DNA of 64,000 bases, from assembly GCA_039201605.1 (NCBI GenBank), contig JBCCRO010000030.1, positions 1,686-65,685 on the forward strand. Reading direction: 5' to 3'. Of this stretch, positions 14,357 through 61,698 are shown in pieces. Origin of the DNA: Actinomycetota bacterium (GTDB lineage Bacteria; Actinomycetota; Acidimicrobiia; Acidimicrobiales; SZUA-35). The translations under genes and the position numbers were made by a program. The notes below the pieces were generated by a model. The model was not told where the DNA came from. It saw only the letters and a list, made by a program, of their open reading frames with translations, and ran no database searches. Position 1 is the stretch's first letter, and each line of letters begins with the position of its first letter.

Positions 14357-14512
14357 TCGACCTTGAGCGAACTCGTCACAAGCGATAGGTTGAAACGTGA
14401 TCCGTAACGGTTTACGTCGGATCGACCAGTTCGAGGTGAGAGCCCTGAACCACCCGTTCAGACCCTCGGCGGCACGATCCAGCTGAACCATCGCCGAGCC
14501 GAGGAACCTGGA

Positions 14513-14692
14513 TTGTCCTCAGAGCAAGATCCGCCTATCGATCCCGAGATCGATGTCGTCGTTGCCGCCCGTCGTCAGCTCGATGACGTGCTCGCCATCG
14601 AGGACGACGAGACGGCCCCGACGTCGCTGATCGACCTGGCCCGAGCCGCCGTCGACCAGTGGGACGGGGATGCCGCCGACTCGACCCGCTAG
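14513..14692 (+). CDS. possible unannotated small acidic ORF (59 aa, TTG start)
   Basis: Not in the track. High-GC3 frame: LSSEQDPPIDPEIDVVVAARRQLDDVLAIEDDETAPTSLIDLARAAVDQWDGDAADSTR*. GAGGAA sits 6 nt upstream of the TTG. In-frame stop at 14405-14407. Convergent with the sigma gene. Confidence 0.3.
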   Translation: MSSEQDPPIDPEIDVVVAARRQLDDVLAIEDDETAPTSLIDLARAAVDQWDGDAADSTR

Positions 14693-14705
14693 TCGTTTCG
14701 GTCCG

Positions 14706-15293
14706 TCACCCCTCGCCCCCTTGGTCGTCGACGTCGTCTTCGTTCGACGTGTCGGGAGCCAGATGCTCCTTGAGTTTGGTCAGCCCTTTCGTCCGGTGTT
14801 CTCGCACCGATCGTGGGTGAATGCCGAGTCGCTCGGCTATCTCCGTCACCGAGAGACCATCGACCAGGTGGAGTAAGGCCACCTGGAGTTGCCTCCCCCG
14901 GAGGAGTTCGTGGACGAGATCCACCAGGTGCATCCGGCCCAGCAACTCATCGATGGCACTCGGTTCATGATCCTGGTGTCGCTGCACACCCGGTCGTGGT
15001 TCCGGTGGGGGTCCATCGTCGAAGTTGGCCCGACGTTCCCGCTTCTCCCGCCGCTGCTCCGATCTGAGAAGGTCGCGGTAGGCGTTGATCGCCGACCGAC
15101 GGATGTAGTTCAGCCAGTACTGCTCGCCTTTACCCCGAGCCCGCCGAACGTGGTCGCTGTCCCACTTCCGGTGGAGGTTGTAGGCCACTCGCTGAGCGAT
15201 CTCATCCGCCGTGTCCGCCGAAGCCCCCGCCATCGCCGCCGCGCTCCGGGCGGTGTCGAGGATTCGCCGGCATTCTTCATTCGCGTCAGCCAT
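14706..15293 (-). CDS. sigma-70 family (ECF-like) RNA polymerase sigma factor, 195 aa
   Basis: Track ORF 14706-15527 trimmed to ATG 15291-15293, preceded by GGGAGGAG. Region 2-like YWLNYIRRSAINAYRDLLR. Region 4 HTH LSVTEIAERLGIHPRSVREHRTKGLTKLKEHL. Confidence 0.8.
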   Translation of the reverse strand: MADANEECRRILDTARSAAAMAGASADTADEIAQRVAYNLHRKWDSDHVRRARGKGEQYWLNYIRRSAINAYRDLLRSEQRREKRERRANFDDGPPPEPRPGVQRHQDHEPSAIDELLGRMHLVDLVHELLRGRQLQVALLHLVDGLSVTEIAERLGIHPRSVREHRTKGLTKLKEHLAPDTSNEDDVDDQGGEG

Positions 15294-15622
15294 GGTGCTC
15301 CTCCCGTTGTCGATCGGGAGGGCGGCACCGGGGCCGCCGCCTAGTGCGATAGAGGTTTCGTTGTCGTACTCCCCGAGCCCTGCAGAACATAACTCTCCTC
15401 GGTGTCTGGACCTAGAGCGCGCTTCGGCTTCGAAAGCGACCCTGCCTCGGGCCGTAGCGCAGTCATTTCCCAATGGCGGCCGCTGATCGCGACCACACGC
15501 CGATGAGGAGCTGCCGTCCACTCGCAACCAAGGCGGGGTCTCCCTCGGCCCCTGGCACGGCGAGGCTCGGAAGCCGTCGGCCGTGTTGGTTGTAGAGCGG
15601 TCCTCTTCACGATGATCCTTTC

Positions 15623-15653
15623 GTTCTTTTCAGGTAGTAGGGCTGAAAAGAGC
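15623..15653. other. AT-rich stem-loop (CTTTTCAG-N9-CTGAAAAG) in the 500-bp sigma/XRE divergent spacer
   Basis: Perfect 8-bp arms at 15626-15633 / 15643-15650, extendable with flanking pairs. No U-run on either strand. Confidence 0.35.
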
Positions 15654-15676
15654 AGAAGAAGAATCTGAACAGTGAT

Positions 15677-15705
15677 CTTGTCACACGAACCGGTTACCGG
15701 ACAAG
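15677..15705. promoter_or_regulatory. composite palindrome CTTGTC-N5-AACCGGTT-N4-GACAAG upstream of the XRE gene (candidate autoregulatory operator)
   Basis: Arms at 15677-15682 / 15700-15705 flank the perfect 8-bp palindrome 15688-15695. About 90 bp upstream of GTG 15797. Confidence 0.3.
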
Positions 15706-15796
15706 TTGCTTACCAACTTTGTGTGGATCGGTTACGGTAATCGAAGTACAGTTCGTACCGACGTGGAGGATCTGCGCTCGGAAGGGGAGGTGTCGA

Positions 15797-16654
15797 GTGG
15801 CTACGACCTCGCCGCTGGTTGCTCAACTGGAGTTCAGCGTTCGCATCCGGGAGCGTCGGCGCGAGCTCGAACTCGACGCTCGCACGGTCAGCTCCCGGAT
15901 GGGCTTCTCGCGTAACTACTACTCCGCCGTGGAGAACAATCGGGCGAAATTGGCCGACGACCGCCTCCCTGAACTCGCCACCATCCTCGAACTCGACGAG
16001 GCCACCACAGCCGAACTCGCCAGTCTACTTAGCGCATCTCGCAAGTCCGGCTGGTGGGATGCTTACTCGAAGTTCATCGATGAGTCCTTCGTCGAGCTCT
16101 GGGCCTTGGAGGATGGTGGCTCTGCGATTGACGTGTATGAATCCAGCGTCGTGACGGGTTTGTTGCAGACTCGCCAGTACGCCGAAGCGATGATCAAGGT
16201 TGACCCCCGGACTAGCGCCAAGGACACACGTCGATTTGTTGAGGCTCGAATGAAGCGACAGGAGCGACTGGCAGGTGGCAATCCTCCCGAGCTTCGAGTG
16301 CTATTGAGCGAGTCCGTGGTCATGCAGGAAGTCGGTGGTCCAATCGTCCTCAGGGGCCAGCTTCAGTATCTTCTCGACAAGGCAGACAGGATGCGTGGGG
16401 CGCTCCGTTTGCGGATCACGCCGTTTACTGCGACTGAGACTATGGCGGCCTCTTCCCTCTTCTTCATCGGATTTGATAGCCCGCATCTGGAGCGAGTCGT
16501 ATGGCGCGAGGCCGGCAGCGCGTTGGGCTTCTCCTCCGATCCAGACTTGCTCGAGGATCTCTCGCTCGCATTCGATCGCGTTTGGGATTCGGCGCTTGAT
16601 GAGGTTGAGACACTCAACCTAATTGCCGGCCGAGCTAAGTCACTCTCTGCGTAG
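15797..16654 (+). CDS. XRE-family HTH regulator with DUF5753-type C-terminal domain (WhiJ/Scr1-like)
   Basis: Track ORF trimmed to GTG 15797, which lies 6 nt after GGGGAGG. HTH LDARTVSSRMGFSRNYYSAVENNR. The C-terminal WWDAY...YESSVVTGLLQT...RITPF pattern is typical of the family that pairs with DUF397. Confidence 0.85.
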   Translation: MATTSPLVAQLEFSVRIRERRRELELDARTVSSRMGFSRNYYSAVENNRAKLADDRLPELATILELDEATTAELASLLSASRKSGWWDAYSKFIDESFVELWALEDGGSAIDVYESSVVTGLLQTRQYAEAMIKVDPRTSAKDTRRFVEARMKRQERLAGGNPPELRVLLSESVVMQEVGGPIVLRGQLQYLLDKADRMRGALRLRITPFTATETMAASSLFFIGFDSPHLERVVWREAGSALGFSSDPDLLEDLSLAFDRVWDSALDEVETLNLIAGRAKSLSA

Positions 16655-16804
16655 CTTCTAGCTCGTACTGTGGCCATTTTGCGCAACACTTGACGTTTGG
16701 TTGACAAGCGTTCTCACTGGCGGCGCCCACGGCTAAGGTCCGCCGCTGGGGCAAAATGCGACGGCGGGCCTCATCAGGGTTTCCGAGATCGCAAAGGAGC
16801 GAAT

Positions 16805-17194
16805 TTGTCTCGACCACCGAGTGGCCATAGCTGCTGGGCGTACGCCTGGCCTGAATTCCGGAAGCCGACCGCCTCTGTAGGCGCTGGTGCTTGCGTAGAG
16901 ATTCGAGTTGATTCTGTAACCATCTTGATTCGAGATTCCAAGCAGAACCATCAGGCTCAGCAGCCGGTGATCGAGGTTTCGCTCGATGCTTGGTTCCAGA
17001 TTCTCGATGAGTTTGCCGGGCGACTGCCGCTCAACGTCAATGGCGAGTTGCGTATCGACAAGGCTGAAGACGGTTCGGCCACCTTCACGTCGGTCGCCAC
17101 CGGCGTGTGCCTGTCCTACACGAAGGCCGAGATCCTCGCCTTCGAGCATGGCGTGCTCAACGGGGAGTTCACCCCGGAGCTCGTCGCCGTCTGA
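16805..17194 (+). CDS. DUF397 domain protein (extended, 129 aa)
   Basis: TTG 16805 lies 6 nt after AAGGAG. FRKPTASVGAGACVEIRVDSVTILIRDSKQ matches the DUF397 hallmark (RKSS.S...CVEV...V.VRDSK). The C-terminal ...TKAEILAFEHGVLNGEFT resembles the usual DUF397 end, so the domain carries a roughly 50-aa insertion. Confidence 0.75.
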   Translation: MSRPPSGHSCWAYAWPEFRKPTASVGAGACVEIRVDSVTILIRDSKQNHQAQQPVIEVSLDAWFQILDEFAGRLPLNVNGELRIDKAEDGSATFTSVATGVCLSYTKAEILAFEHGVLNGEFTPELVAV

Positions 17195-17202
17195 TAGCTG
17201 GA

Positions 17203-17234
17203 GCGGGTGTCGGCCCAAGGTGGGCCGACACCGC
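17203..17234. terminator. hairpin between convergent DUF397 and DivIVA genes
   Basis: GGTGTCGGCCCA (17206-17217), AGG loop, TGGGCCGACACC (17221-17232). 12-bp perfect stem. Confidence 0.5.
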
Positions 17235-17237
17235 TTC

Positions 17238-18371
17238 CTAGTTGTTGCTATGGCCGTTGCCGTTGACGAAGGTGCTGACCGGCGCAGCGGCGGTCAGGTC
17301 GATCGTTTCGGTGGCATCGCTGAGTAGGGACTGACCGGCGTCGAGATCCTCGGCGTCGCCCTCGTCACTCTCATCCGCCTCGGCTGACAGGTCCGCTTCG
17401 GCGGCCGGCATCTCGATGGCGCCGTCGCCCTCGGAGGCATCGGCCTCCGCCTCGCCGCCATTCTCGGCGTCGGAACCGGAACCGGAGTCGGCAGCGGCCT
17501 CGACCGAGCCGTTGTCCTCGGCGGCGGGAGCGTCCACCTCGTCGTCGCTCTCGGCCGCATCCGCCAGATCGACCACCGCATCGGTGTCGACGTCATCGGC
17601 CGACTCGTCGCCTGCCGACTCGGGCTCAGCGTCGGCGTCGACGACGACCTCGTCCTCCGCCGCGACGTCCACGCCCTCGTCCGACACGATCGCTTCGACG
17701 GCCGAGCCCTCATCCTCGGCGGTGGCTGGCTCGTCGTCGGCGGGTGAAGACGAATCGGCCTCGGCCTCAGCCTCAGCCTCAGCTTCGGTGGTCGGTGCCG
17801 CCTCGACCAGACCGACGGCGGCAAGCGCCTCGTTGGCCTCGGCGTTGAGACCGGACAGACCGCCGCGGGCGATGGCCTCCAGGCCGGCGACCAGGGACTG
17901 GCGAGTGGCGTCCAGGTCTTCGACTTTGGCCCTCAGGATCGACTCGGCCTTGTCGTAGCGCTCGCGAGCGTCCTGATGGCGGACGTCGAGCTCGGCCTGC
18001 AACGCCTCGAACTTCTCCAGCTCGGCGGCATGGCGTGCCTTTCGGTCCTGCTCGGCCTCCTGGCTGAGTGTGGCCGCCTCGGCCTGGGCCGTTCGGACGA
18101 TGTCGGCCGCATCGCGCTCGGCGTCCTCGCGCGCCTGCTGGGCCGCCACCTCGGCCGAGTCGAGCTGGACGGCCCGCTCGTGCTCGGTGCGCTCACGCTC
18201 GGCGGCGGCCGCCTTCAGCGTCACGACCTCGTCCTCGAGGGCGCGAACCTGCGCCTTGCTCTCCTCCAGCGCCTCTCCCCACGCCTCCGCCTGCCGCACG
18301 AGGAACGCATCGACCTCATCGATGTCGTAGCCCCGACGCACGACCTGGAAGCCCCGCTGATTGGTGCTCAT
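17238..18371 (-). CDS. DivIVA domain-containing coiled-coil protein with long acidic tail
   Basis: Trimmed to ATG 18369-18371 (GGAAGGAG upstream). N-terminal FQVVRRGYDIDEVDAFL DivIVA signature, a coiled-coil A/E/R-rich middle, and an EAEAEAEA / D,E,A-rich C-terminus. Confidence 0.85.
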   Translation of the reverse strand: MSTNQRGFQVVRRGYDIDEVDAFLVRQAEAWGEALEESKAQVRALEDEVVTLKAAAAERERTEHERAVQLDSAEVAAQQAREDAERDAADIVRTAQAEAATLSQEAEQDRKARHAAELEKFEALQAELDVRHQDARERYDKAESILRAKVEDLDATRQSLVAGLEAIARGGLSGLNAEANEALAAVGLVEAAPTTEAEAEAEAEADSSSPADDEPATAEDEGSAVEAIVSDEGVDVAAEDEVVVDADAEPESAGDESADDVDTDAVVDLADAAESDDEVDAPAAEDNGSVEAAADSGSGSDAENGGEAEADASEGDGAIEMPAAEADLSAEADESDEGDAEDLDAGQSLLSDATETIDLTAAAPVSTFVNGNGHSNN

Positions 18372-18533
18372 CCGCCTTCTCCTTCCCGCCCCCACACACC
18401 CGAAGTCGATCGACTCAGGCGACGAGTTCCCGGGAAGTATACGATGCTCAACGGTCCGGAGTCCCGCCCATGAGGGCTAGGGAAAGGTGACCGGACTAGG
18501 TTCGATGGGTTCGACCAACTGAGGCGGAGCAGT

Positions 18534-19931
<1,398 letters not shown>

Positions 19932-20359
19932 GCCCGAGCCGGCGCGCGGCCTCGACGCTGTCCTGCCTCCGGGCCAAGATGAGGGGGCTCAGCCGAACGC
20001 GGCGGCCAGTGAAGCTCATCCGGTGGACAAGATCGCCGTTCGCAAGCTCGGCGGCTTCAACCTCATCACCCCCGAGCAATGGGGTGCGATATCCGCCGCA
20101 GACCGCAAGGAACTGATCAAGACCAACATGGTCACCTTCCTCTACGAGGGCGAGGAAGTGCCGCTCAAGCCGGCCCTGCTGGGTATCCGCCGCCAGCTGC
20201 AGGCGCAGGCCGAGTACGACGGTGTCGGCCAGCAACCGGGGTCGATCCAACCCCGACCGGCCGATTCCTGATCATCACCGCCGGGCACCGGTGATGCGAC
20301 ATGACAGCGAGGCGAGGCGCGGAACGGTCCGGCCTCGCCCAATGACCTAGCGAAGGGGC

Positions 20360-51048: not shown

Positions 51049-52599
51049 TCAGGCGTCCCGCAGCTCGCGGCGGAGGATCTTGCCCGAGGCGCTCTTGGGG
51101 ATGGCCTCCAACGTCTCCATGGCCCGGACCTGCTTGTAGGAGACCAGGTGCTCGCCCACCAGCTCCTGGAGCTCGTCGAGGGTCACGGTCTCGCCCGGTA
51201 CCGGTACCACGAACGCCTTGGGCAGTTCGCCCGCCTCGTCGTCCTGGATGCCGATCACGGCCACGTCGGCCACCTTGGGGTGGGTCACGATCACGGCCTC
51301 CAGCTCGGCCGGCGGCACCTGGAAGCCCTTGTACTTGATCAGCTCCTTGAGCCGGTCGACGATCGACACGTGGTGGTGCTCGTCGACGATGGCCACATCG
51401 CCGGTGTGGAGCCAGCCGTCGGCGTCGATGGTGGCGGCGGTGGCCTCCGCGTTGTTGAGGTAGCCGGTCATCACCTGCGGACCCCGGACCCACAACTCGC
51501 CCCGCTCACCAACCGGCTGATCCTCGCCGGTGCCCGGATCGACGATGCGGGTCTCGGTGTTGGACACCGTCACCCCGCTGGTGCCGGGCCGGAAGTCGCC
51601 CTCGGGGGTGCAGTGGCTCACCGGGCTCAGCTCGGTCATGCCGTAGCCCTGCACCACCTCGCAGTTCACCCGGGCCGCCGCCTCCTCGGCCAGCTCGGCC
51701 CCGAGGGGGGCGGCACCGGAGAAGATCTGCTTCAGCGACGACAGGTCGTAGTCGTCGACGATCGGGGCTTTGGCCAGGCCGAGCACCATCGGCGGCACGG
51801 CGTAGAAGCGGGTGATCTTGTGTTCCTGGACGGCGGTGAGGGCCTCGACCATGTCGAAGCGGGGCATGGTCACCACCTTGACCCCGTTGGCCAGGAGGCC
51901 GTTCATCAGCACCTGCATGCCGTAGATGTGGAAGAACGGCAGCGCGGCCAGGGCCGCCTCGTTCTGGTCGTAGACGATGGCGTGCTGACACTGCTCGATG
52001 TTGGCCACCAGGTTGCGGTGGGTGAGCATCACACCCTTGGGGAGGCCGGTGGTGCCCGAGGAGTAGGGGAGGACGACGGTGTGGGTCGCAGTGTCGACCG
52101 GCACCTGCTCGATCGGCTCACCGAACAGCTCGGCCGCCGACCTGGTGCCTTCCGGCCCGTCGCCCAGCACGTAGACGTCGGTGACGTCGGTGCCCTCGAT
52201 GGCCTCCAGCGCCGTCTCGGCGAACATCCCGATCGTCACCAGAAGGGAGGCGCCGGCGTCCTGGAGCTGGAACCGGACCTCGCCCGCACCGTACGTCGGG
52301 TTGATGGTGGTGACGGCCCCGCCGGCCACGGCGGCACCGTGGAAGGCGATGGCGTACTCGGGGATGTTGGGGGCCATGATCCCCATCACCGAGCCCGGAC
52401 CGAAGCCCTTGGCCGCCAGTCCGCCGGCTAAAGAGTGGATGGCGCCCTGCAGGGCCGAGAAGGTGTACGAGCTGTCGCCCGAGGTGTTGGTCATCGCCAC
52501 CTGATCGGCGAGCTCACCGGCCTTGCGCAGGATGTGGGACGTGATGGTGACGTCCGGGATCTCGACGTCGGGTAGTGGGCTTTGGTGAATGATGACCAC
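51049..52599 (-). CDS. AMP-dependent acyl-CoA synthetase/ligase (4-coumarate- or long-chain-fatty-acid-CoA ligase-like)
   Basis: Track ORF trimmed to GTG 52597-52599. LPYSSGTTGLPKGVMLTHRNL, GYGMTE, WLHTGD, LIKYKGFQV, PKSASGKILRREL. Confidence 0.9.
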   Translation of the reverse strand: MVIIHQSPLPDVEIPDVTITSHILRKAGELADQVAMTNTSGDSSYTFSALQGAIHSLAGGLAAKGFGPGSVMGIMAPNIPEYAIAFHGAAVAGGAVTTINPTYGAGEVRFQLQDAGASLLVTIGMFAETALEAIEGTDVTDVYVLGDGPEGTRSAAELFGEPIEQVPVDTATHTVVLPYSSGTTGLPKGVMLTHRNLVANIEQCQHAIVYDQNEAALAALPFFHIYGMQVLMNGLLANGVKVVTMPRFDMVEALTAVQEHKITRFYAVPPMVLGLAKAPIVDDYDLSSLKQIFSGAAPLGAELAEEAAARVNCEVVQGYGMTELSPVSHCTPEGDFRPGTSGVTVSNTETRIVDPGTGEDQPVGERGELWVRGPQVMTGYLNNAEATAATIDADGWLHTGDVAIVDEHHHVSIVDRLKELIKYKGFQVPPAELEAVIVTHPKVADVAVIGIQDDEAGELPKAFVVPVPGETVTLDELQELVGEHLVSYKQVRAMETLEAIPKSASGKILRRELRDA

Positions 52600-52681: not shown

Positions 52682-54610
52682 TCAGGCGGGGGCGCCGGGC
52701 CTGGTCTGCGTCGGCCGCTCCCGCAACCACTCGATGAGCGCCGGGGGCGGTCGGCCGTGATCGTCGGCGGCGAAGGTCGGCACATCGGTCGGGGGGAATC
52801 CGGCGGCCACCGACTCCAGGCGGACGATGGGACGGCCGAGCCGGGCGGCCAGGCCGATCCGCTGGGCCAGGCGCCACGAGGTGGCCCCGCGCTCGGTGAT
52901 CACCGCCACCACGCAGGCGGCGGCGGCCAGGGCGGAGTCGACGGCGTCGACCACGGGGGTGGCGTCGGACGCCTCCACGGCCGCGGCCGGGGGGCCGGGG
53001 TCGTCGGCGGGCGGGTCGAGGGTGGTGACGTCGAAGCCGAGGTCCGCCAACGCGGCGACGGCGACCGAAACCTCGTGGCCGTCGTCGTCGGCGCCGATCA
53101 CCACCACCCCACGACCGGGACCACCGGGGCGGGCGGCGGCGGCATCGAGGACGTGGGGCGACACCGCCGCCGACCACACCGGGTCGCCCTCGACCGCCAG
53201 CGCCACGACCGTGGTCTCGTTGGCGTCGACGTCGGCCACGGCCAGGACGTGATCGCCGGCCCTGGGGGTGACGGTGGCCGTCGCCACCGGCTCCGGGTCG
53301 GTGGTCCGGCCGCTGCGGGCCCGGAAGTGGACGGTCACCGCCGTGCCGTCGAAGTCGGCCTCCGGGCGGACGGCGGCGGTGGCCCGGGTCGGCACGCCCG
53401 TGTGGGGTGGGAGCAGCGCCGTCGTTCGGCCGGCGGCGTCGTCGAACTCGTAGGCGGCGGCGGCCCCGTGCAGCAGCAACAGGTCGTGCACGTCGCCCGC
53501 CATCACGCCGCCCACGATGGCGGCTCCGACCGCCACCACGTCGGTGGGGGAGGGGGCGGGGAGCGGGGCGATGCCGAGGTCGAGCGACAGGGTGTCGGCG
53601 AACACCGGCCGCGTCGCCGCCCCGCCCACCAGCACCGCGCCGTCGAGATCGGGCACCGGCCAATCGGCGGTGTCGAGAGCGGTGCCGACCAGAGCCCGGA
53701 GGTGGGCGGCGGTGGCGGTGGCGGGCCCCTGCCACACCTCGGTCGTCAGCTGGAGGGCCAGGTCCGCCTGCGGCGACGGGCCGGCTCCAGCGGGCCCGGC
53801 GGCGGGCAGACCGTCGAGATAGTCGGGCACCCGCACCACGGCCCGACCGGTGGCCGCCAGCTCGCGGTCGGCCGCTCGGGCGGCGGCCAGGAGCCGGGCG
53901 TAGGGGATGGCGCCCCCGGCCGGGTCGACGCCGGTCTCGGCTCGGATCCAGCGGGCGATGGTGGCGGCCACGGCGTGGTGCCATCCCTCGCCGCTCACCC
54001 GGTCGGTGGAGGCGGCGTAGTGGGCGTCGAGCACCCCGCTGCCGGTGTCGATCAGGGCGACGGACAGGCCGCCTCCGCCCGCGTCGATCAGGAGGAAGGT
54101 GCCGGCCGGGGCGTCGGCCAGCGTGGCGGCGGCGGCGCAGCTGGTCGAGGGGACGAGGCGGGCCACCTCGACCCCGGCCCGGCGGACGGCGTCGGCCAGG
54201 GCGAGCCGGTGGCGGAGGGGGACCGACGGTCGGACCGCGACCACCGCCCGGATATCGGCACCGGCGGCGGGCGCCTCGGGGACGGCGGCCGCCACGGCCT
54301 TGGCCACCAGTGCGGACACGACCTGTTTCGCCGTCGGGGCCGGATCGGTGGGGGTGGTCGGTGAGGCCTCGTCGGCGGCCAGGGTCAGCGGCCGTTCGAC
54401 GGCGCCCAGGAGGTGGAGGAACGACCGGACGGCCCGATCGGGTCGGGCCTCGGTGAGGGCCGACGCCTCGTCACCCACGACGAAACCGTGGGCGGTGGCG
54501 CAGGCCACAGCCGGGATGCGGGCCCCGTCGGGTATGACGGCGCCGCGGTCGGTCAGCCGTGCCGCCCGAACGGCGGTGGCGCCGATGTCGAGGCCGATCG
54601 TGATGGACAC
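52682..54610 (-). CDS. Hsp70/DnaK-like ATPase (NBD + SBD-beta, no helical lid) fused to a C-terminal TIR-like alpha/beta domain
   Basis: IGLDIGATAVRAA (phosphate 1), FLLIDAGGGGLSVALID (phosphate 2), AVLVGGAATRPVFADTL (adenosine motif), then DVDANETTVVALAVEG resembling the SBD-beta DIDANGIL segment. The last 141 aa (52682-53107) alternate strand/helix like TIR. The start is uncertain: GTG 54608-54610 is preferred and ATG 54808 is possible. Confidence 0.75.
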   Translation of the reverse strand: MSITIGLDIGATAVRAARLTDRGAVIPDGARIPAVACATAHGFVVGDEASALTEARPDRAVRSFLHLLGAVERPLTLAADEASPTTPTDPAPTAKQVVSALVAKAVAAAVPEAPAAGADIRAVVAVRPSVPLRHRLALADAVRRAGVEVARLVPSTSCAAAATLADAPAGTFLLIDAGGGGLSVALIDTGSGVLDAHYAASTDRVSGEGWHHAVAATIARWIRAETGVDPAGGAIPYARLLAAARAADRELAATGRAVVRVPDYLDGLPAAGPAGAGPSPQADLALQLTTEVWQGPATATAAHLRALVGTALDTADWPVPDLDGAVLVGGAATRPVFADTLSLDLGIAPLPAPSPTDVVAVGAAIVGGVMAGDVHDLLLLHGAAAAYEFDDAAGRTTALLPPHTGVPTRATAAVRPEADFDGTAVTVHFRARSGRTTDPEPVATATVTPRAGDHVLAVADVDANETTVVALAVEGDPVWSAAVSPHVLDAAAARPGGPGRGVVVIGADDDGHEVSVAVAALADLGFDVTTLDPPADDPGPPAAAVEASDATPVVDAVDSALAAAACVVAVITERGATSWRLAQRIGLAARLGRPIVRLESVAAGFPPTDVPTFAADDHGRPPPALIEWLRERPTQTRPGAPA

Positions 54611-54683
54611 GTCGTGCGACGCTAGCGCCGACCGGCCGTGCTCAAGCCGGCCTGTGGCACTTGTCCGTTCGGAATCGGACCAT

Positions 54684-54852
54684 CTAGTGCCCTGGCCACC
54701 AACCTTTGCGGTGTTTGCCCGGCGCCTGACGCCGCTGGGCGGCGTCCTCGTCGCCCCTCTCACGCTCACAGGTGAGCGGGACTCCTGCGTCCTTGCCAGC
54801 GACGCCATTCACTCGGGCAAACCCGAGCGAACGTTCGTGGCCAGGGCACTAG
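54684..54852. repeat. perfect 16-bp inverted repeat CTAGTGCCCTGGCCAC / GTGGCCAGGGCACTAG bracketing a 137-nt spacer downstream of the PPC-lipoprotein gene
   Basis: Arms at 54684-54699 and 54837-54852, read directly. The right arm contains the TAG stop (54849-54851). Inner hairpins lie at 54728-54746 (GACGCCGC-TGG-GCGGCGTC) and 54812-54827 (CTCGGG-CAAA-CCCGAG). Confidence 0.7.
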
Positions 54853-55919
54853 GTCAGCGAGGCCCGGAACTGGTAGATCCCGGTCGTGCTCTCGATGGTT
54901 CCGCCGTCGCCACCGGCGAACTCCAGGGCGTAGGTGCCGGTCTCGTCGAGGACGAACGGGCCCTGGGCCCGACAGCCGCCGTTGCCGATCCAGCCGACGT
55001 CGAAGCGCTGGCCGAGCGGATCGACGATGAACAGGTCGAGGTCCTGACGGCAGCTGTCGGCCTGGCCGATGGTGAGGATCTCGACGGCGAGCACCTGGCC
55101 GGCGGTGGCGTCGAAGGTCCACACGTCGGAACCGAAGACCTCGGAGATCTCACCCCCCTGCACGGTGTCGAAGGTGAGCGAACTCTCGTCTCGCTCGGTG
55201 AGGATGCGGGGGACGAACTGGTAGGGGCCGCTGGTGCTCTCGATGGTGCCGCCGTCACCTCCGACGAACTGCAGCTCGTAGTCGCCGGTGGTGGGCAGCA
55301 GGAAGGGCCCGTGACCCTCACACCCACCGTTGCCGATCCAGCCGAGGTCCCAACGGTTGGCCCGGGAATCGGCGAGGTAGAGGTCGAGGTCCTGTCGGCA
55401 GTCCCCGGCGGCGGTGCCGATCGAGAGCACCTCGACGGTGAGGATCTGTCCTTCGGTACCGGAGAAGGTCCAGTAGTCGGCGGCGAACACGCTCTCGATG
55501 TCGCCGCTGTTGATCTCGCCGAAGGTGATCGGGTTGACGTCGGGGCTGGTGACCGGTTCCTCGTCGTTGGTGCTGTTGAGCTCCTCGAGCACGGGGAGGG
55601 CGATGGCGAGGTTGTCGGCTGCCGAAGGCAGCTCGATCGACCCCTCGGCCACGGTCGGGGGCTCGTCGGCCCCGCCCCCTTCGGTGGTGTCGCCGGTGTC
55701 GTCGGCGTCGGTCGTCGGGTCGCCGTCGGTCGTGGTGTCCGCCTCGTCGGTGGCCTGCGTGGCCAGGGCTGCGGACTCGGTGTCGCCGTCGACGACGCGG
55801 ACGAGGACCTCGGCCTCCGGGCCGCTGGTCGAGGCCCCGCCACAGGCGGCGCCCACCACGGCAAGCGCCCCCAGTACGGCCGTCAGCCGTCCGAGTGATC
55901 GTCGAGTGTTTCCAGTCAT
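54849..55919 (-). CDS. lipoprotein with two tandem pre-peptidase C-terminal (PPC)-like domains
   Basis: ATG 55917-55919 follows GGGGAGAGGGA. LGALAVVGAACGG lipobox and an acidic Thr/Asp linker. Two ~115-aa repeats (..DYWTFSGTEGQILTVEVLSIG..CRQDLDLYLAD..GWIGNGGC.. / ..DVWTFDATAGQVLAVEILTIG..CRQDLDLFIVD..GWIGNGGC..). Confidence 0.75.
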   Translation of the reverse strand: MTGNTRRSLGRLTAVLGALAVVGAACGGASTSGPEAEVLVRVVDGDTESAALATQATDEADTTTDGDPTTDADDTGDTTEGGGADEPPTVAEGSIELPSAADNLAIALPVLEELNSTNDEEPVTSPDVNPITFGEINSGDIESVFAADYWTFSGTEGQILTVEVLSIGTAAGDCRQDLDLYLADSRANRWDLGWIGNGGCEGHGPFLLPTTGDYELQFVGGDGGTIESTSGPYQFVPRILTERDESSLTFDTVQGGEISEVFGSDVWTFDATAGQVLAVEILTIGQADSCRQDLDLFIVDPLGQRFDVGWIGNGGCRAQGPFVLDETGTYALEFAGGDGGTIESTTGIYQFRASLT

Positions 55920-55930
55920 TCCCTCTCCCC

Positions 55931-57622
55931 TCACGGCCCGGCCGCCACCGTCACCACACGCGTCACCCGATCATCGCCCGCCTCCAGGCCGATCTCGATC
56001 GTCCCCGGCGACGACGGGGTGATCTCGACGGCAGCCCCGGTGAACGACTCGCCGTTGACCGTCCAGGCGCCATCCTCGACGCCGGGCGCGGTGAACACCG
56101 CGGCCTGCCCGACGGTCACCGCCGCCGGACCGACGATGACAACCGACGCCGCATCGGGCGCGGTGGCGGTGAACACCAGCTCGTCGGCGCCGTCGCCCTG
56201 GGTGGCCGTGACCTCGACCCAGCCCTCGGTGCCGGGGGTGACGGCGATCGTGGTGCCGACGAACTCGTCGCCGCCCACGGTCCAGGTGGCCGGGGCCCCG
56301 TCGGTGGTGGTGAAGGCCACCTCCTGGCCGACCGGGCCGGTGGTGGGGCCGGTGATGGCGCCGTCGCCGCCGAGCACCTGGGTGGCGAGGAGGGCCAGGC
56401 CGCCGACCACGGCCACCGTCACCACCCCGAGCACGACGAGGAGGGGCAGGCGGGACCGACGGCCCGGCGCCGACACCGCGCCCTGGAACGAGTCGGTGGG
56501 CGCCTGCGGCGACGCCGCATACCCGGCGGGGGCACCGTAGGCCGACGTCGTCGGCGGGTGGGCCTGACCGGCCGGTGTGTACTGGGCCGGGGCGGGACCG
56601 GGAGCCGGGGTGGAGGCCGGGTTGGGCGCGTCCGAGTGGCGGGCCGCCGTGGTCGGCTGGGCGGCGAATCGGTCCGGCACCACCGGGGGCGGCATCGAGC
56701 CCAGCGAGCCGGGGGCCGACGGCGGTGCCGCCACCGTCTGATAGGAGGCGTCGGCTCGGGGCCGCACGGGGGCGCCGCCGGGGGTGGTCAGCGCCGTGCT
56801 GAGCGAGCCGAACCAGGTGTCGATGTCGCGATGGCGAACGTCGGACCGGACGGCGAGACCGCGCTGGAGCTCGGTGGCCAGGGGGCCGGTGGCGGCCATG
56901 GCGTCGTCGGCGAAGGCCGACTGCCCGAGGGCGATCAGGGGCTGGGGCTGGGTGCCGCTGACGGCGGCCACGATCAGGGCCGAGGCGGCGTAGACGTCGG
57001 CCGAGGCGCTGACCGAAGCGTCGCCCCGGAACTGTTCGGGGGCGCCGTAGCCCGGGGTGCCGCCCGCCATCGTGGCGTGGGCGGCGTGGGGGTCGACCAC
57101 CTTGGCCAGACCGAAGTCGGCCACGGCCAACTCCTCGTCGGGCCCGAGCACGCCGGCGATGACCGTCGAGCGGGCCGACTCCGCACCCCGGTTGACCCGG
57201 ATGAGGTAGTTGCTCGGCTTGAGGTCGCGGTGGACCATCCCGGCCCGGTGGATGTGGCCGGTGCAGATGGCGATGGCCCGGGCCAGCTCCACCGCCTCGG
57301 GCACGGTGAGGCGGCGGCCAAGGCCGTCGAGCCGGTCGGCCAGCGTCCCCCGCTCGCAGTACTCCATCACGAAGTAGGGACGTCCGTTGTCCTCGCCGAT
57401 GTCGTAGACCGTGACGAGGCCCGGGGTCTGGAGCTGGCGCATGACGCGGGCTTCGGACACGAAGCGTTCGCGGAGCTCGGCGTCGCCGGCCATGTTGTCG
57501 GCCAGTACTTTGATCGCCACCCAGGCCTGCAGGTCGGGGTCGTGGGCCAGGTAGACGGTGGCGAATCCGCCCGTCCCCAGCACGCTGTGCACCTGATATC
57601 GACCGATTCGATCCGGGATCAC
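55931..57622 (-). CDS. Hanks-type Ser/Thr protein kinase with Pro-rich linker, one TM and two extracellular Ig/PKD-like repeats
   Basis: GTGGFATVYLA...VAIKVL, HRDLKPSNYL, DFGLAK, GTPGYGAPEQ. TM LPLLVVLGVVTVAVVGGLALLA. The C-terminus repeats VGQ..FT....WTV.G..F.G. GTG start. Confidence 0.9.
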   Translation of the reverse strand: MIPDRIGRYQVHSVLGTGGFATVYLAHDPDLQAWVAIKVLADNMAGDAELRERFVSEARVMRQLQTPGLVTVYDIGEDNGRPYFVMEYCERGTLADRLDGLGRRLTVPEAVELARAIAICTGHIHRAGMVHRDLKPSNYLIRVNRGAESARSTVIAGVLGPDEELAVADFGLAKVVDPHAAHATMAGGTPGYGAPEQFRGDASVSASADVYAASALIVAAVSGTQPQPLIALGQSAFADDAMAATGPLATELQRGLAVRSDVRHRDIDTWFGSLSTALTTPGGAPVRPRADASYQTVAAPPSAPGSLGSMPPPVVPDRFAAQPTTAARHSDAPNPASTPAPGPAPAQYTPAGQAHPPTTSAYGAPAGYAASPQAPTDSFQGAVSAPGRRSRLPLLVVLGVVTVAVVGGLALLATQVLGGDGAITGPTTGPVGQEVAFTTTDGAPATWTVGGDEFVGTTIAVTPGTEGWVEVTATQGDGADELVFTATAPDAASVVIVGPAAVTVGQAAVFTAPGVEDGAWTVNGESFTGAAVEITPSSPGTIEIGLEAGDDRVTRVVTVAAGP

Positions 57623-57733: not shown

Positions 57734-60700
57734 CTATGGATCCGTTCTGAACAAGTTTGGGGTCGGTCGCGCCGGGGGGAAGGCGCGCCAGCCGTCGGCC
57801 GTGCCGACCAGGCCGAGGCGGCGACCGATGTCGTCGGCCTCGGCATCGTCGAGCTCGGCGGCGTTATGGCGACCGGCTCCCGACGCCGCCGTCGCCCGGT
57901 CGAGCAGGCAGAGCAGCAGCTCGTGGTCGAGCTTCTCCACCCGGGCCTGGTCGATCGCCTCCTCCAGCTCCTCATCGGCCTCGACGGTGACACCGGCGGC
58001 CCGGAGGCCGGCGGCCAGCAACCGTCGGGTCGGCACCTCCACCGTGGCCCCACCGCCGTCGGTCGCGTTGCGGGCCAGGAGCTCGCGGGCCGCCGCCACC
58101 GTGTCCGGTCCGGGGGCGGCGACCTCGAGGAGGAACAGATCGGCGTGGGCCACGAACGCGGTCGAGCTCATGGCCACGAAGTCGGCCCGGGCCGCCTCCA
58201 GCAGCTCCCGGGCCTCGTCGGCCCGACCCTGCCTGCCGGCCAGGCGGCCGAGGTTCATCCGGGTCACGTGCACCGCCATCTCGTAGCCGGCGGCCCTCGC
58301 CTTGCGGTTGGCGTCGGTGAGCAGCTCCCGGGCCTCGTGGTGGTGGCCCTGGTTGGAGCGGATCTCCCCCAGGTTGTTGAGCGACGAGACCACGCCGCTG
58401 ATATCACCGGCGGATGCCCGCAGCCGGTGTGATCGCTCGTGGAGTCTGGCCGCCCGATCCCACTCCCCGGCGTAGTAGGCGGCGATGCCGAGGTTGTTGT
58501 ACAGGCCCGACTTGAGCACGGCATCCTCGATGGCGTCGACCAGTTGCTCGGCCTGTTCGGCGTGGTGAGCGGCCTCGGCCCGGCCCTGGTACGTGCCCGC
58601 CAGCTGGAGGACGTAGTGGGCCCGGAAGCGGGCGGCCACGGGGGCCGTGGTGTCGCCCGCCACCGCGGTGGCCGTCTCCCAGCAGTCGTCGTAGCGGCCC
58701 TGGCGGAAGCGGATGCCTGCGATGGCCACCGCCAGCTCGGCCGGCTCGTCGGGGAAGCCGTGGTCGAGCTCGGCGGCGGCGGCCAACCCCCGTCGGTACC
58801 AGCGCACCGCCTGGTCATAGCGGCCCTGTCGTTCCTGGAGTTGGCCCTGCTTGCGGAACAGGGGCAGCCGCTCGTGGTCGCCCGCCGCCAGCAGCGACCG
58901 AGCCGACCGGTAGGCGTCGGTGGCCGTCTCGTAGCGACCGGCCCGCTCGGCGGCGTCACCCAGCTTGGTGGCGACGTGGCTGCGCTGGCGTCGGGTCACG
59001 TCCTTGGGGTGTCGACCGGCGGCCAGAGCCCGCTGGTAGGCCTCGATCGCCTCCACCGGCGACGACAGGGCGACGGCCCGATCGCCGGCCCGGACCGAGT
59101 ACGACCAGGCCCGTCGGTGGGCTCCGGCCTCGCTGAAGTGGCGTGACAGCACGTCGGCCACCTCGTCGATGCGGGCTCCGACCGACGCCTCCAGATGCTC
59201 TCCCACCCGCCGGTGCAGCACCCGACGGCGGGCGAAGGGCAGGCCCTCGTAGGCGGCGTCGCGGTACAGCGTCTGGGTGAACCGCCACCGGCCCGGCCCC
59301 GACGGCTCGATCAGCCCGGCCAACGACTCGTCGTCGAGCCCGACCTCGGCCCGCGAGCCGAGCAGGACGTCGAGCGTCTTGGCCGGGAACGACACCCCGA
59401 TCACGGCGGCGAGGCGGATCGCCCGACGGGCGGCGGGCGGCAGATCGTCGATCCGGGTGGCCAGCAGCCTCTCCACCGAGTCGGGCACGGCGCCGCCCGC
59501 GGTGCCGACGGCCCGGGTCAGCTCCAGGGCGAACAGCGGGTTGCCGGCGGCTCGCTCGATGATCACCGCCAGGTCGTCGTCGGACAGGGGTCGCTCCGAC
59601 GACTCGATCGCCAGTCGGCGGACGTCGGCGTCGTCGAGGGGTGTCAGCGCGATGCGCTCCAGGTGCTCGCCGTCGAGGGAGGGGCCCTCGGTCTTGGCCC
59701 GGCGGCTGACGATGACGGTCCACGGTCGATCGAGGGCGGTCCGGGCCAGGTGCTCGACCAGCTCCCGGGAGCCGTCGTCCACCCACTGGGCGTCCTCGAC
59801 CACCAGCACCGCGTCCCCGGCGAGGGCCCCGTCGATCAGATCGACGACGGCGTCGTGGATCCGGGCCCGACGGAACTCCTCGCTGATGGCGGCCGCCTCG
59901 GGGGTGGCGGGCACGTCGGCCCCGATGGCCACCGCCAACAGGGGGACCATGGGTGCCAGCGACGGGCAGCGCTCGTCGACGATCTTGGCCAGGATCTCGC
60001 CGGTGTGGAGCGGACCGGCCAGCGCGTCGAGCCCGAGCCCGGTCCGCAGCATGGTGCGGGCGGCGCCGTAGGGCGTGGTGCGACCGAACTGCGAGGCCGT
60101 ACCCCGCAACAGGTGGAAGGCCTGAGACGCCGCCGCCCGTTCGACCGCCTCGGCGATGAGCCGGGTCTTGCCCGACCCGGCCGGACCGACCAGGTCGACC
60201 ACCCGACCGCCGAGATCGATGGCGTGCTGAAGACGGTCGCAGTCCTCGTTCCGGCCGTGCAGCCGCCCCTCGGCGAGCTGCAGCCGGGCGGCGTGCTCGA
60301 AGCCGAGCACCCGATGGGCGGTGATCGGCTCGCGCTTGCCCTTGACCCGGAGCGGGTCCAGGCGTTCGGAGAGGTAGGTGTCGCGGGCGTCGGCCAGCAC
60401 GTCGGCCACCGCCACCACCTCCCGATCCTCTGCCGGCCCGAGCATCCGGGCCGCGGTGTTGACCACGTCGCCCATCAATGTGTACGTCCGCCGGTAGGTG
60501 CTCCCGAGAAACCCGGCGAAGGCCCGACCGGTCTGGACGCCCTGGTAAAGGGTGAACGGACCGGGGAGGGCGGCCAGGTCGAGGGCGGCCCGGAGCATGG
60601 CGTCGCTGGTGTTGCCCACGTTGCGGGGTGCGCCGGCGCACAGCACCACCTTGAACCCGTCGGGGGCGATGTCGGTGTGGAGGGCGGCCACGTCGTAGCG

Positions 60701-61534
60701 GTCGACGACGGCCTCGATGCCGTCGATCAACCGGGCCAGCTCGGCCGCCGCCACCGCCGGGCCCCGCGCCGCCCGCAGCTCCCCGATACCGCCGACGAGG
60801 AGGAAACCGACGGTGACCAACCGATGCTCGCCCCCGAGGTCGGCGAAGGCGTCGAGCTGATCGACGACGGCGGTGGGGACGAAGTCGCTCAGCGAGCTGT
60901 CGGCGGGGACCCGGCGGTCGGGGGCGGCGGTGGGGGCGAGGGTCGGGGCGCCCCGGAGGACGCGACCCCCGGCGCTACGGTCGCCGACCAGGGCCGGGTC
61001 CACGCAGGCGGCGATCGTCGCCGAGGCCAACGTCTGACCCTTGGACGCCGCGCTCTCCAGCTCGATCACCCGGCCTGCCTTCTCGCCGATGATCAGCAGC
61101 TCCCGGTGGCCGCCACCGACGAGATAGCAGTCGAAGGGGCCGTCGCCCACCCCCACCGTCATGGTCAGCCGCGCCCGGCGGGCCGCCCCCGAGGTGGCGA
61201 GGGCCTGCTGCATGGCCAGGCCGGCGTTCGCCGCCCGCCGCTCGTGATCGTCGCCCCGGAACAGCACGAGCAGGGCGTCGCCCCCGAACGTGATCACCTC
61301 GCCGCCGTAGCCGTAGGCGGCGCCGATGAGGGCCTCGAAGCAGGTGTTGATGAGGACGGTGATCTCCTCGGCTCCGGCCTTGCCCTTCCCGGCCAGACGC
61401 TCGGACAGGGCGGTGAAGCCGGAGATGTCGGCCGACAGCATCGACCCGTCGATGGCCTGCCAGTGGGAGCCGGGCTCCATCGACCGCTCGACGGTGATCC
61501 GGGGAACGAAGGGCGCCAGTCGCGCGGCGTTCAT
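57734..61534 (-). CDS. tandem class III adenylate/guanylate cyclase domains + AAA/STAND-like NTPase + TPR array, 1266 aa
   Basis: Trimmed to ATG 61532-61534. LSADISGFTALSERL...FGGDALLVLF (cyclase 1), MGDVVNTAARM (cyclase 2), LVGPAGSGKTRLI Walker A, and C-terminal TPR-like repeats (..YQRAL..,..YRSA..,..YNNLG..). No C-terminal LuxR HTH. Confidence 0.85.
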   Translation of the reverse strand: MNAARLAPFVPRITVERSMEPGSHWQAIDGSMLSADISGFTALSERLAGKGKAGAEEITVLINTCFEALIGAAYGYGGEVITFGGDALLVLFRGDDHERRAANAGLAMQQALATSGAARRARLTMTVGVGDGPFDCYLVGGGHRELLIIGEKAGRVIELESAASKGQTLASATIAACVDPALVGDRSAGGRVLRGAPTLAPTAAPDRRVPADSSLSDFVPTAVVDQLDAFADLGGEHRLVTVGFLLVGGIGELRAARGPAVAAAELARLIDGIEAVVDRYDVAALHTDIAPDGFKVVLCAGAPRNVGNTSDAMLRAALDLAALPGPFTLYQGVQTGRAFAGFLGSTYRRTYTLMGDVVNTAARMLGPAEDREVVAVADVLADARDTYLSERLDPLRVKGKREPITAHRVLGFEHAARLQLAEGRLHGRNEDCDRLQHAIDLGGRVVDLVGPAGSGKTRLIAEAVERAAASQAFHLLRGTASQFGRTTPYGAARTMLRTGLGLDALAGPLHTGEILAKIVDERCPSLAPMVPLLAVAIGADVPATPEAAAISEEFRRARIHDAVVDLIDGALAGDAVLVVEDAQWVDDGSRELVEHLARTALDRPWTVIVSRRAKTEGPSLDGEHLERIALTPLDDADVRRLAIESSERPLSDDDLAVIIERAAGNPLFALELTRAVGTAGGAVPDSVERLLATRIDDLPPAARRAIRLAAVIGVSFPAKTLDVLLGSRAEVGLDDESLAGLIEPSGPGRWRFTQTLYRDAAYEGLPFARRRVLHRRVGEHLEASVGARIDEVADVLSRHFSEAGAHRRAWSYSVRAGDRAVALSSPVEAIEAYQRALAAGRHPKDVTRRQRSHVATKLGDAAERAGRYETATDAYRSARSLLAAGDHERLPLFRKQGQLQERQGRYDQAVRWYRRGLAAAAELDHGFPDEPAELAVAIAGIRFRQGRYDDCWETATAVAGDTTAPVAARFRAHYVLQLAGTYQGRAEAAHHAEQAEQLVDAIEDAVLKSGLYNNLGIAAYYAGEWDRAARLHERSHRLRASAGDISGVVSSLNNLGEIRSNQGHHHEARELLTDANRKARAAGYEMAVHVTRMNLGRLAGRQGRADEARELLEAARADFVAMSSTAFVAHADLFLLEVAAPGPDTVAAARELLARNATDGGGATVEVPTRRLLAAGLRAAGVTVEADEELEEAIDQARVEKLDHELLLCLLDRATAASGAGRHNAAELDDAEADDIGRRLGLVGTADGWRAFPPARPTPNLFRTDP

Positions 61535-61698
61535 GCGGTCCACCCCCCGGATGTATCGATCGTCGGTCGAAGCCGTCGCTGGGCATACCGTAGCGGTCGG
61601 CCGCGAGCCGTCGAGCCGGTTGGGTGTCCCAGCCTGTCGCCGTGGCGGGGGCTTCCGGCCCTTCGGGATGCAGCGAGGATGGTGGATGACCGACACCC

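Follow-up and report, generated by a model that had tools for sequence, protein, structure and literature searches.

A catalytically degenerate Hsp70-TIR-like protein encoded beside a receptor-type Ser/Thr kinase and a double-PPC lipoprotein in uncultured Actinomycetota

Introduction

What is an Hsp70-like protein whose helical lid has been replaced by another domain doing next to the gene of a receptor kinase? The question is raised by a locus on contig JBCCRO010000030.1 of an Actinomycetota metagenome-assembled genome (MAG; GCA_039201605.1), where genes for a Ser/Thr kinase, an exported lipoprotein with two PPC domains, and a 642-aa Hsp70-like protein follow one another on the minus strand of the 64,000-nucleotide stretch analyzed here (the window; about 72% G+C). 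A preliminary description of this DNA had presented the three genes as a sensor kinase, an exported partner, and a chaperone-like ATPase carrying a TIR-like effector or adaptor domain, and as a candidate for a new signaling or defense module. Bacterial TIR domains studied to date are mostly NAD-cleaving immune enzymes. As judged from its alignments, the 642-aa protein descends from an actinobacterial Hsp70-TIR family and is a lineage-specific form that has degenerated at its catalytic sites. The best overall explanation, to which we assign a probability of about 0.5, is that this descendant serves as a nonenzymatic scaffold or adaptor for the adjoining sensor pair.

Results

The Hsp70-like gene and the domains of its product are as follows, with residues numbered for the 642-aa product that begins at the GTG at position 54610.

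52682-54610, minus strand: Hsp70-like protein, 642 aa (Pfam HSP70, 78 bits, residues 99-428)
53486..54610, minus strand: nucleotide-binding domain (NBD) of the Hsp70-like protein, residues 1-375 (Pfam HSP70; hhalign to DnaK, 99.7%)
53141..53485, minus strand: interdomain linker (DLLLLH) and domain like the beta part of the substrate-binding domain (SBD-beta), residues 376-490 (hhalign to DnaK)
52685..53119, minus strand: C-terminal TIR-like alpha/beta domain, residues about 498-642 (hhalign to TIR domains)
~52980-53040, minus strand: insertion at the BB-loop position, residues about 531-553 (ortholog comparison)

Comparisons among orthologs cover three loci, one per genome, namely, the window's own and those of two relatives, and dN/dS values were obtained by the Nei-Gojobori method. 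The GTG start is backed by alignment, both other orthologs opening with the same MSI(T/I)IGLD. A longer open reading frame (ORF) of 708 aa, from an ATG at 54808, was rejected as the Hsp70-like gene because its extension spans a 161-nt insertion resembling a miniature inverted-repeat transposable element (MITE) and is not conserved in the orthologs, which do not have the element.

Is this protein really an Hsp70? Pfam PF00012 (HSP70) gives 78.1 bits against a cutoff of 20.6, and hhalign comparison with 30 DnaKs reaches a probability of 99.7% (E = 1e-26), placing residues 1-467 on DnaK 1-479. This alignment passes from the linker (DLLLLH here, DVLLLD in DnaK) through to DVDANETT/DIDANGI, so the SBD-beta is real, and it ends at residue 479 of 633. 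The helical lid (SBD-alpha) is lost, and an alpha/beta region of about 145 aa stands in its place, as had been described from the sequence. The DnaK and HscA equivalogs of NCBIfam are not reached (105.9 bits against a cutoff of 648 and 58 against 620, respectively). Read from the hhalign alignment, the DnaK peptide-pocket positions I401, T403, M404, and F426 are F, D, A, and R here.

What has replaced the lid? Pfam has no match at E <= 10 for residues 376-642 or 495-642, curated TIR models included, and a profile search of PDB sequences yields none for the C-terminal domain. When residues 491-642 of the three orthologs were compared by hhalign with 12 TIR domains of Hsp70-TIR proteins, the score was 34.3 (P = 2.7e-5; probability, 74%) over 97 columns, running from the beta-A strand to the "S-W...E...A...P-I" region. 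None of 300 column shuffles reached this value (mean, 10.5; maximum, 18.6), and the reversed sequence scored 7.5. At full length, the protein aligns with the Hsp70-TIR protein P0034 (HEX6597520.1, annotated as "Hsp70 family protein," from an Acidimicrobiales MAG) in a single collinear alignment of 563 columns, residues 1-600 on 1-617, which passes through the TIR_2 domain and scores 273, versus 202 for DnaK. BLASTP gives 29% identity between the two over 485 aa (E = 3e-30), and an SF[KL]xLLGAVER signature foreign to DnaK is common to both. Based on the TIR profile score, its controls, and the collinear full-length alignment, the C-terminal domain is best read as a divergent TIR in the position of the lid, and the TIR-like label of the preliminary description therefore holds.

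Could the domain be some other flavodoxin-like (beta-alpha)5 module, either a deoxyribosyltransferase/DNPH1-like domain or a pseudo-receiver, which would be a possible target of phospho-signaling? Its motif QRIGLAARLGRPI parallels YELGRAVALGKPI of DNPH1, to which hhalign aligns 99 columns (score, 17.7; P = 0.037), and the acidic DDD cluster after strand 1 is reminiscent of receiver domains. AlphaFold2 (AF2), run on three-sequence alignments and of low confidence for lack of alignment depth, proposes a beta-alpha-loop-alpha-beta-alpha-beta...alpha order for the domain; the best Foldseek entry of this model is RCL/DNPH1 (2klh; E = 0.025, TM-score 0.36), which is not significant. DNPH1 and deoxyribosyltransferases recur among the top entries (TM-scores of 0.3-0.4), but so do ThsB, SARM1, and the RPS4 TIR. 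That these entries all belong to the TIR and deoxyribosyltransferase group is suggestive only, given the shallow alignment behind the model. The profile scores favor a TIR, at 34.3 versus 17.7 for DNPH1/RCL and 15.1 for receiver domains (the latter over 20 columns only), and a receiver domain was rejected as the primary assignment on this comparison. The domain also sits exactly at the TIR_2 position of the collinear Hsp70-TIR alignment. We therefore regard a non-TIR origin as quite unlikely. TIR and deoxyribosyltransferase folds are themselves related, so the choice between these two is partly a difference of label.

Is the protein still an enzyme? The three ATPase motifs that had been pointed out are recognizable, yet the catalytic residues inside them are substituted. 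DnaK D8 and D194 are kept (the latter as D176), whereas K70 is replaced by L65 in three independent alignments, E171 by S155 (A in ortholog P0003), T199 by G181, and D201 by S183. The K70L, T199G, and D201S substitutions are invariant across the clade, and all 15 DnaKs examined are canonical at these sites, as are nearly all Hsp70-TIR proteins. Since K70 and E171 of DnaK are needed for hydrolysis and interdomain coupling, the NBD would bind nucleotide at best, without hydrolyzing it. A parallel loss is seen in the TIR-like domain, where the column of the catalytic glutamate holds E in 12/12 sister TIRs and R584 in 3/3 members of the window clade. The DNPH1 alignment independently sets its catalytic E104, an identity backed by a PDB entry of an E-to-Q mutant, on R584. 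A 19-aa Pro/Ala-rich insertion occupies the BB-loop position in the window genome only, the two orthologs being free of it. What defines the fold is retained, from the phosphate loops and the hydrophobic linker between NBD and SBD to the SBD-beta and TIR core; with the residues for ATP hydrolysis and the TIR catalytic glutamate gone, the protein looks enzymatically dead.

Is it then a pseudogene? The Hsp70-like ORF is intact in all three genomes, and its dN/dS among the orthologs is 0.31-0.33 overall; split by region, it comes to 0.27-0.28 (NBD), 0.25-0.33 (SBD-beta), and 0.44-0.46 (C-terminal domain). The former TIR active-site helix lies in a segment of about 35 residues that is almost unchanged among the orthologs. 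The gene is about 3-4 times more relaxed than that of the neighboring acyl-CoA synthetase (dN/dS of 0.07-0.12). Purifying selection on all three domains, together with the intact ORFs, indicates a conserved pseudo-enzyme rather than a pseudogene. Taken together, the identity of its domains and their degeneracy are the part of our interpretation in which we have high confidence.

How widespread are such proteins? Only three full-length members were found among 5.8 billion clusters: the window's own sequence (from an NCBI Actinomycetota MAG), P0002, and P0003. A profile search of 1.84 billion representatives returned one cluster that matches over the full length, other matches covering the NBD only, sometimes with the SBD-beta. 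Two scans of GTDB genomes, with the alignments of the Hsp70-like and PPC proteins, respectively, found no relatives. The PPC alignment retrieved no further members from metagenomes, either, giving two spurious loci (a TonB receptor and a metallophosphatase) that were discarded. A word-indexed search with the C-terminal alignment was empty and missed even its own family, the candidates being swamped by Ala-rich words.

More distant relatives are informative. Domain counts were made on the best 149 Hsp70 representative matches of the profile search. TIR domains are present in 15/149 (Pfam TIR_2 was confirmed for P0034 and P0035), and Pkinase domains, in either order relative to Hsp70 and in some cases with GrpE, DnaJ_C, or TPR, are likewise present in 15/149. 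It is the kinase-fused NBDs that have the highest hhalign score to the window NBD (288), and 6/15 of them are without K70 and 8/15 without E171. The sister Hsp70-TIR proteins retain K70 in 10/11 and E171 in 11/11 cases. Attempts to extend the Hsp70-TIR set gave little: when nine Hsp70-TIR proteins were used in a word-indexed search, canonical DnaK crowded the results and no match contained a TIR, P0180 proved to be an assembly-duplicated DnaK, and tblastn of P0034 against plasmids recovered dnaK genes only. Full-text literature searches found no paper describing bacterial Hsp70-TIR fusions, which are annotated in databases.

The surroundings of the Hsp70-TIR genes differ from those in the window and from each other across six loci, with integrases, a resolvase/transposase, Prim-Pol, RelA, or a ThsB-like TIR plus a caspase as neighbors. 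At L007 (108-5251), downstream of a canonical Hsp70-TIR_2 gene and on its strand, lie genes for a ThsB-like TIR (125 aa), a Peptidase_C14 of the caspase family, and two unknown proteins, an arrangement like a conflict-system operon that may be a better defense candidate than the window locus. Elsewhere, an Hsp70-TIR gene lies by phage-type integrases (L008, 8001-11637), a resolvase and a transposase helix-turn-helix (HTH) gene (L010, 1501-4884), or Prim-Pol (L006, 7035-10502). These contexts suggest that the Hsp70-TIR family travels on mobile islands. As for the kinase fusions, P0032, P0037, and P0067 are single polypeptides with Pkinase, lidless Hsp70, and GrpE, with or without DnaJ_C/TPR, and the P0037 gene (L014) clusters with those of three more kinases and a PP2C phosphatase.

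Could the window locus itself be an active defense or abortive-infection module, in line with the preliminary description, in which the kinase and lipoprotein perceive an attack and the Hsp70-like ATPase switches on a catalytically competent TIR-like effector with a noncanonical active site, e.g., the invariant E573 or the DDD508-510 cluster? The sister TIR_2 domains are intact, with the catalytic Glu, and their genes sometimes adjoin caspase and ThsB-like genes or integrases. The nearly unchanged segment of some 35 residues at the former active-site helix, the faster evolution of the three genes than of the flanking gene, and the occurrence of degenerate Hsp70 NBD/SBD units in CoCoNuT defense systems (PMC11090510) would also fit. 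Against this stand the Arg in the Glu column of 3/3 members, found alike in the TIR and DNPH1 alignments; an NBD without K70, E171, T199, and D201; and a conserved metabolic neighborhood that is free of mobile and defense genes. Nor did a match to a known defense system emerge: in PADLOC-DB v2, the Hsp70-like and PPC proteins match 0 families, the kinase matches only generic kinase models (PD-T4-6 and mad6), and the cyclase encoded upstream weakly matches PycC. An active defense role thus appears very unlikely.

How firmly is the Hsp70-TIR-like protein tied to the kinase? The elements that bear on this question are listed below.

55931..57622, minus strand: receptor-type Hanks Ser/Thr kinase, 563 aa (Pfam Pkinase, 124 bits)
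54849..55919, minus strand: exported double-PPC lipoprotein, 356 aa (Pfam PPC, two stretches, 49.6 bits)
54688..54848, no strand: MITE-like palindromic insertion, 161 nt (inverted repeats and CTAG duplication)
54611..54645, minus strand: promoter-like stretch upstream of the Hsp70-like start codon (conserved in three loci)

The same-strand order and coordinates of the kinase, lipoprotein, and Hsp70-like genes given earlier are supported by ORFs, third-codon-position G+C content (GC3), and Pfam alike; the four minus-strand ORFs from the cyclase to the Hsp70-like gene have GC3 values of 0.89-0.93 and a coding-type codon bias. The kinase consists of a catalytic domain (~1-280), a Pro/Ala-rich linker (~281-395), one transmembrane segment (~398-424), and an ectodomain of two beta-rich extracellular repeats of about 65 aa each. 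Its catalytic motifs are intact in translation (VAIK, HRDLKPSN, DFG, and GTPGYGAPE), so that Pkinase domain, motifs, single hydrophobic segment, and C-terminal repeats all agree with a receptor-type Hanks kinase. The two extracellular repeats that had been named Ig/PKD are there, but the name rests on motif resemblance only, as Pfam gives no match for them at E <= 1. Selection is stronger on the catalytic domain (dN/dS, 0.11-0.14) than on the transmembrane and ectodomain part (0.23-0.43). The lipoprotein opens with a signal peptide and a VGAAC lipobox, both invariant in the three orthologs; an acidic linker rich in Thr and Asp leads to two PPC beta-sandwich domains, and the Cys pair of each (C174/C200 and C290/C316) is likewise invariant. 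The kinase stop codon and the lipoprotein start are 11 nt apart in all three genomes (not 12, as first counted), and the start is preceded by a Shine-Dalgarno-like run, GGGGAAGG, within the 3' end of the kinase gene.

Farther along, the spacing changes. The spacer between the PPC and Hsp70-like genes is 238 nt long and, as had been noted, strongly structured (-138 kcal/mol; z = -6.4). This structure stems from the 161-nt inverted-repeat element, which is inserted exactly at the PPC stop codon. Its terminal inverted repeats, TGCCCTGGCCACGAACGTTCGC and GCAAAGGTTGGTGGCCAGGGCA, are 22-26 nt long (the 26-nt repeat is 88% complementary), and a CTAG target-site duplication flanks it at 54849-54852, holding the PPC stop codon, and at 54684-54687. 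The window has one copy of the element, with no parent transposase identified. L001 and L002 lack it, and their 72-nt spacers align with what is left of the window spacer once the element is set aside. Since Rfam has no family in the window, the spacer is not a known riboswitch or small RNA. Within the shared remainder, the final 25 nt or so ahead of the start codon are nearly invariant in the three loci, reading GGCGCTA(G/A)CGTCGC(A/T)CGACGTG with the codon included, while the rest varies. A promoter-like box can be read here, with TTGAGC (54645-54640), a 15-nt spacer, TAGCGT (54624-54619), and the GTG 8 nt on. A consensus sigma-70 scan gives nothing, and no Shine-Dalgarno sequence precedes the GTG. 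TAGCGT is of the TANNNT type and may represent the -10 box of an actinobacterial mRNA with a short leader or none, and the Hsp70-like gene probably has its own promoter. Cotranscription with the PPC gene is not indicated because of the spacing, the promoter-like box, and the MITE hairpin.

What does gene order tell? The order kinase, PPC lipoprotein, Hsp70-like protein, and acyl-CoA synthetase, all on the same strand, is kept in 3/3 genomes. Synteny breaks exactly upstream of the kinase gene in each of the three and never within the trio; it also covers the genes for the acyl-CoA synthetase and an ABC transporter. The dN/dS values of the three genes are similar, at 2-4 times that of the flanking acyl-CoA synthetase gene. 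Two neighbors serve as landmarks.

51049..52599, minus strand: acyl-CoA synthetase (AMP-binding), 516 aa (Pfam AMP-binding, 309 bits)
57734..61696, minus strand: cyclase (two domains)-AAA_16-TPR protein (Pfam, two Guanylate_cyc stretches, AAA_16, and TPR)

The acyl-CoA synthetase gene, a conserved housekeeping neighbor, starts 82 nt downstream of the Hsp70-like gene and was our yardstick for rates. Upstream of the kinase, the large cyclase-AAA-TPR gene is present as had been described, with Guanylate_cyc, AAA_16, and TPR domains, yet it was rejected as a member of the module: it stands beside the kinase in the window and L003 only, L001 having a CoA-transferase gene and a small ORF there and L002 a gene for a 2991-aa FG-GAP/hemolysin-type protein, and as it is adjacent only in the window genome it falls outside the unit. 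The cyclase protein has two cyclase-homology stretches, with weak similarity to Pycsar PycC models (E of about 5e-8).

The main alternative explanation is that the Hsp70-TIR-like gene is independent of the kinase-lipoprotein pair, i.e., a domesticated or decaying stand-alone conflict gene with its own promoter and an unrelated role. Canonical Hsp70-TIR genes are solitary, often in mobile contexts, with a kinase or PPC neighbor at 0/6 loci; the -10-like box and the missing Shine-Dalgarno sequence fit a separate transcript; the stretch that separates the PPC gene from the Hsp70-like gene has accommodated a hairpin element; and the synteny reaches the clearly unrelated acyl-CoA synthetase and ABC transporter genes equally. 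Conversely, kinase-Hsp70 fusions are common among the nearest NBD relatives, the synteny is broken upstream of the kinase but never within the trio, and the three genes evolve at similar rates. We consider independence doubtful, though well worth keeping in view. A functional link with the kinase, for which fusions of the Rosetta-stone type, unbroken adjacency, and similar dN/dS argue, is in our estimate tentative, somewhat short of an even chance. The coupling of a kinase with a lidless Hsp70 suggested by the preliminary description does recur as a theme, with Pkinase fusions in 15 of the 149 best matches, while the six Hsp70-TIR loci show no general association with kinase or PPC neighbors.

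Elsewhere in the window, a stretch of lower G+C content (14000-20000; 0.63-0.66, with AT skew down to -0.23) encodes a LuxR-type HTH protein (14706-15527, minus strand), an HTH_31+DUF5753 protein (15719-16654, plus strand) adjoining a DUF397 protein (16697-17194, plus strand) as a WhiJ/AbaA-like actinobacterial pair, a DivIVA-like protein (17238-18395, minus strand), and an ammonium transporter (18534-19931, plus strand).

Discussion

What could a protein with two dead active sites contribute? A nonenzymatic scaffold or adaptor is suggested because both active sites are degenerate while purifying selection persists. Of the two roles offered at the outset for the TIR-like domain, that of an enzymatic effector is not supported, given the replacement of the glutamate by R584 and the loss of four NBD residues; that of an adaptor is the one inferred here. 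The membrane Hanks kinase and the cotranslated double-PPC lipoprotein would sense an extracytoplasmic cue, and the Hsp70-TIR-like protein would be the cytoplasmic partner of the kinase, either as a substrate or as a docking platform, e.g., on the Pro/Ala-rich linker. The NBD might be a conformational switch that responds to nucleotide or phosphorylation, and protein-protein assembly might fall to the TIR-like domain. The boldest version, in which a surface-to-cytoplasm pathway like animal TIR-adaptor/kinase signaling runs from the receptor kinase and a PPC lipoprotein acting as cosensor through a dedicated pseudo-Hsp70/pseudo-TIR adaptor that arose from an enzymatic Hsp70-TIR conflict protein, seems to us unlikely. 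In that version, the Glu-less TIR would nucleate assembly under the control of the dead NBD as the gate, and a prokaryote would be using a TIR as an adaptor instead of an enzyme.

Several observations weigh against the scaffold or adaptor explanation. The three genomes are close relatives, with acyl-CoA synthetases that are 92-96% identical (dS, 0.34-0.7), so their conserved gene order is weak evidence of linkage and could be plain inheritance; the co-conservation asked of the three genes is thus seen in three genomes but does not go beyond shared ancestry. The Hsp70-like gene is set apart by 72-238 nt, with a promoter-like box of its own and, in the window genome, a hairpin-forming MITE in between, and a promoter of its own makes coregulation with the kinase and PPC genes less likely. 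At the six loci of canonical Hsp70-TIR genes, which encode five distinct proteins, neither a kinase nor a PPC gene is a neighbor, and 0/149 of the nearest Hsp70 representatives unite kinase, Hsp70, and TIR. The sequences whose alignments point to a loss of catalytic residues are very divergent. Finally, neither AF2 model is reliable (pLDDT of 36.7 for the full length and 49.4 for residues 491-642), and Foldseek with the low-confidence model has no match in the PDB at E <= 0.001.

If the scaffold or adaptor explanation is true, the locus would encode a candidate prokaryotic adaptor-type TIR and a clear double pseudo-enzyme. The analysis also brings to light the parent family, in which a lidless Hsp70 is joined to TIR_2 or to a Ser/Thr kinase, both forms coming mainly from Actinobacteria here. 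As candidates for new defense genes, those members of the family that have intact active sites, some of them located beside genes of the caspase, ThsB-like, or integrase kind, surpass the window copy. Confined as it is to three uncultured genomes, and with an unproven kinase link, the window locus is itself of limited practical use. Overall, the locus is a degenerate variant of an uncharacterized architecture that is visible in databases, not a categorically new system.

The closest known architecture is that of the Hsp70-TIR_2 fusions such as P0034. Both have a collinear NBD, hydrophobic linker, SBD-beta, and TIR instead of the lid, similar lengths (653 versus 642 aa), the SF[KL]xLLGAVER signature, and the same phylum. 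The sisters, however, score 400-700 bits on Pfam HSP70 and pass TIR_2, whereas the window protein scores 78 bits without a TIR match; at 29% identity, the sisters keep K70, E171, and the TIR Glu, all lost from the window protein. In addition, the sister genes are solitary in variable or mobile contexts, while the window gene lies in a fixed block after the kinase-lipoprotein pair.

A second likeness is to the kinase-Hsp70 fusions of Nonomuraea coxensis (QYC45718.1), Actinomadura macra (WP_169806805.1), and Pirellula (gi|32474490), the last noted as a Ser/Thr kinase-HSP70 fusion by Krupa & Srinivasan (2005; PMC1262709). In these proteins, too, a Hanks kinase is coupled with an Hsp70 that consists of NBD and SBD-beta and has no lid; the NBDs are the best profile match (288), and some are also without K70 or E171. 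The kinase of the fusions is cytoplasmic and part of the same polypeptide, often along with GrpE, DnaJ_C, or TPR, and no TIR is present, whereas the window has a separate membrane receptor kinase and carries the TIR-like domain on the Hsp70 unit. The contexts of two such fusions have no PPC or TIR gene.

Degenerate Hsp70 units are also known from conflict systems. CoCoNuT type IV restriction systems hold degenerate Hsp70 NBD/SBD units, CnuD (Bell et al. 2024, PMC11090510), and Hsp70 has been found in GTPase-centered conflict systems (PMC7159879). CnuD resembles the window protein in its lidless NBD/SBD, its degenerate ATPase motifs, the proposed ATP binding with scant hydrolysis, and its place as an accessory module rather than a chaperone. 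It differs in being tied to an McrBC GTPase and HEPN, partners absent here, in its proposed RNA binding, and in having no TIR-like domain.

The logic proposed for the window locus has its counterpart in animal innate immunity (Toll-like receptor [TLR]/MyD88-IRAK), where noncatalytic TIR adaptors act with Ser/Thr kinases below a surface receptor. The relation in sequence is confined to the TIR fold, there are no death domains, and coupling at the window locus is inferred from gene order. What the two would have in common by analogy is a TIR used for assembly instead of NADase chemistry and coupled to a Ser/Thr kinase.

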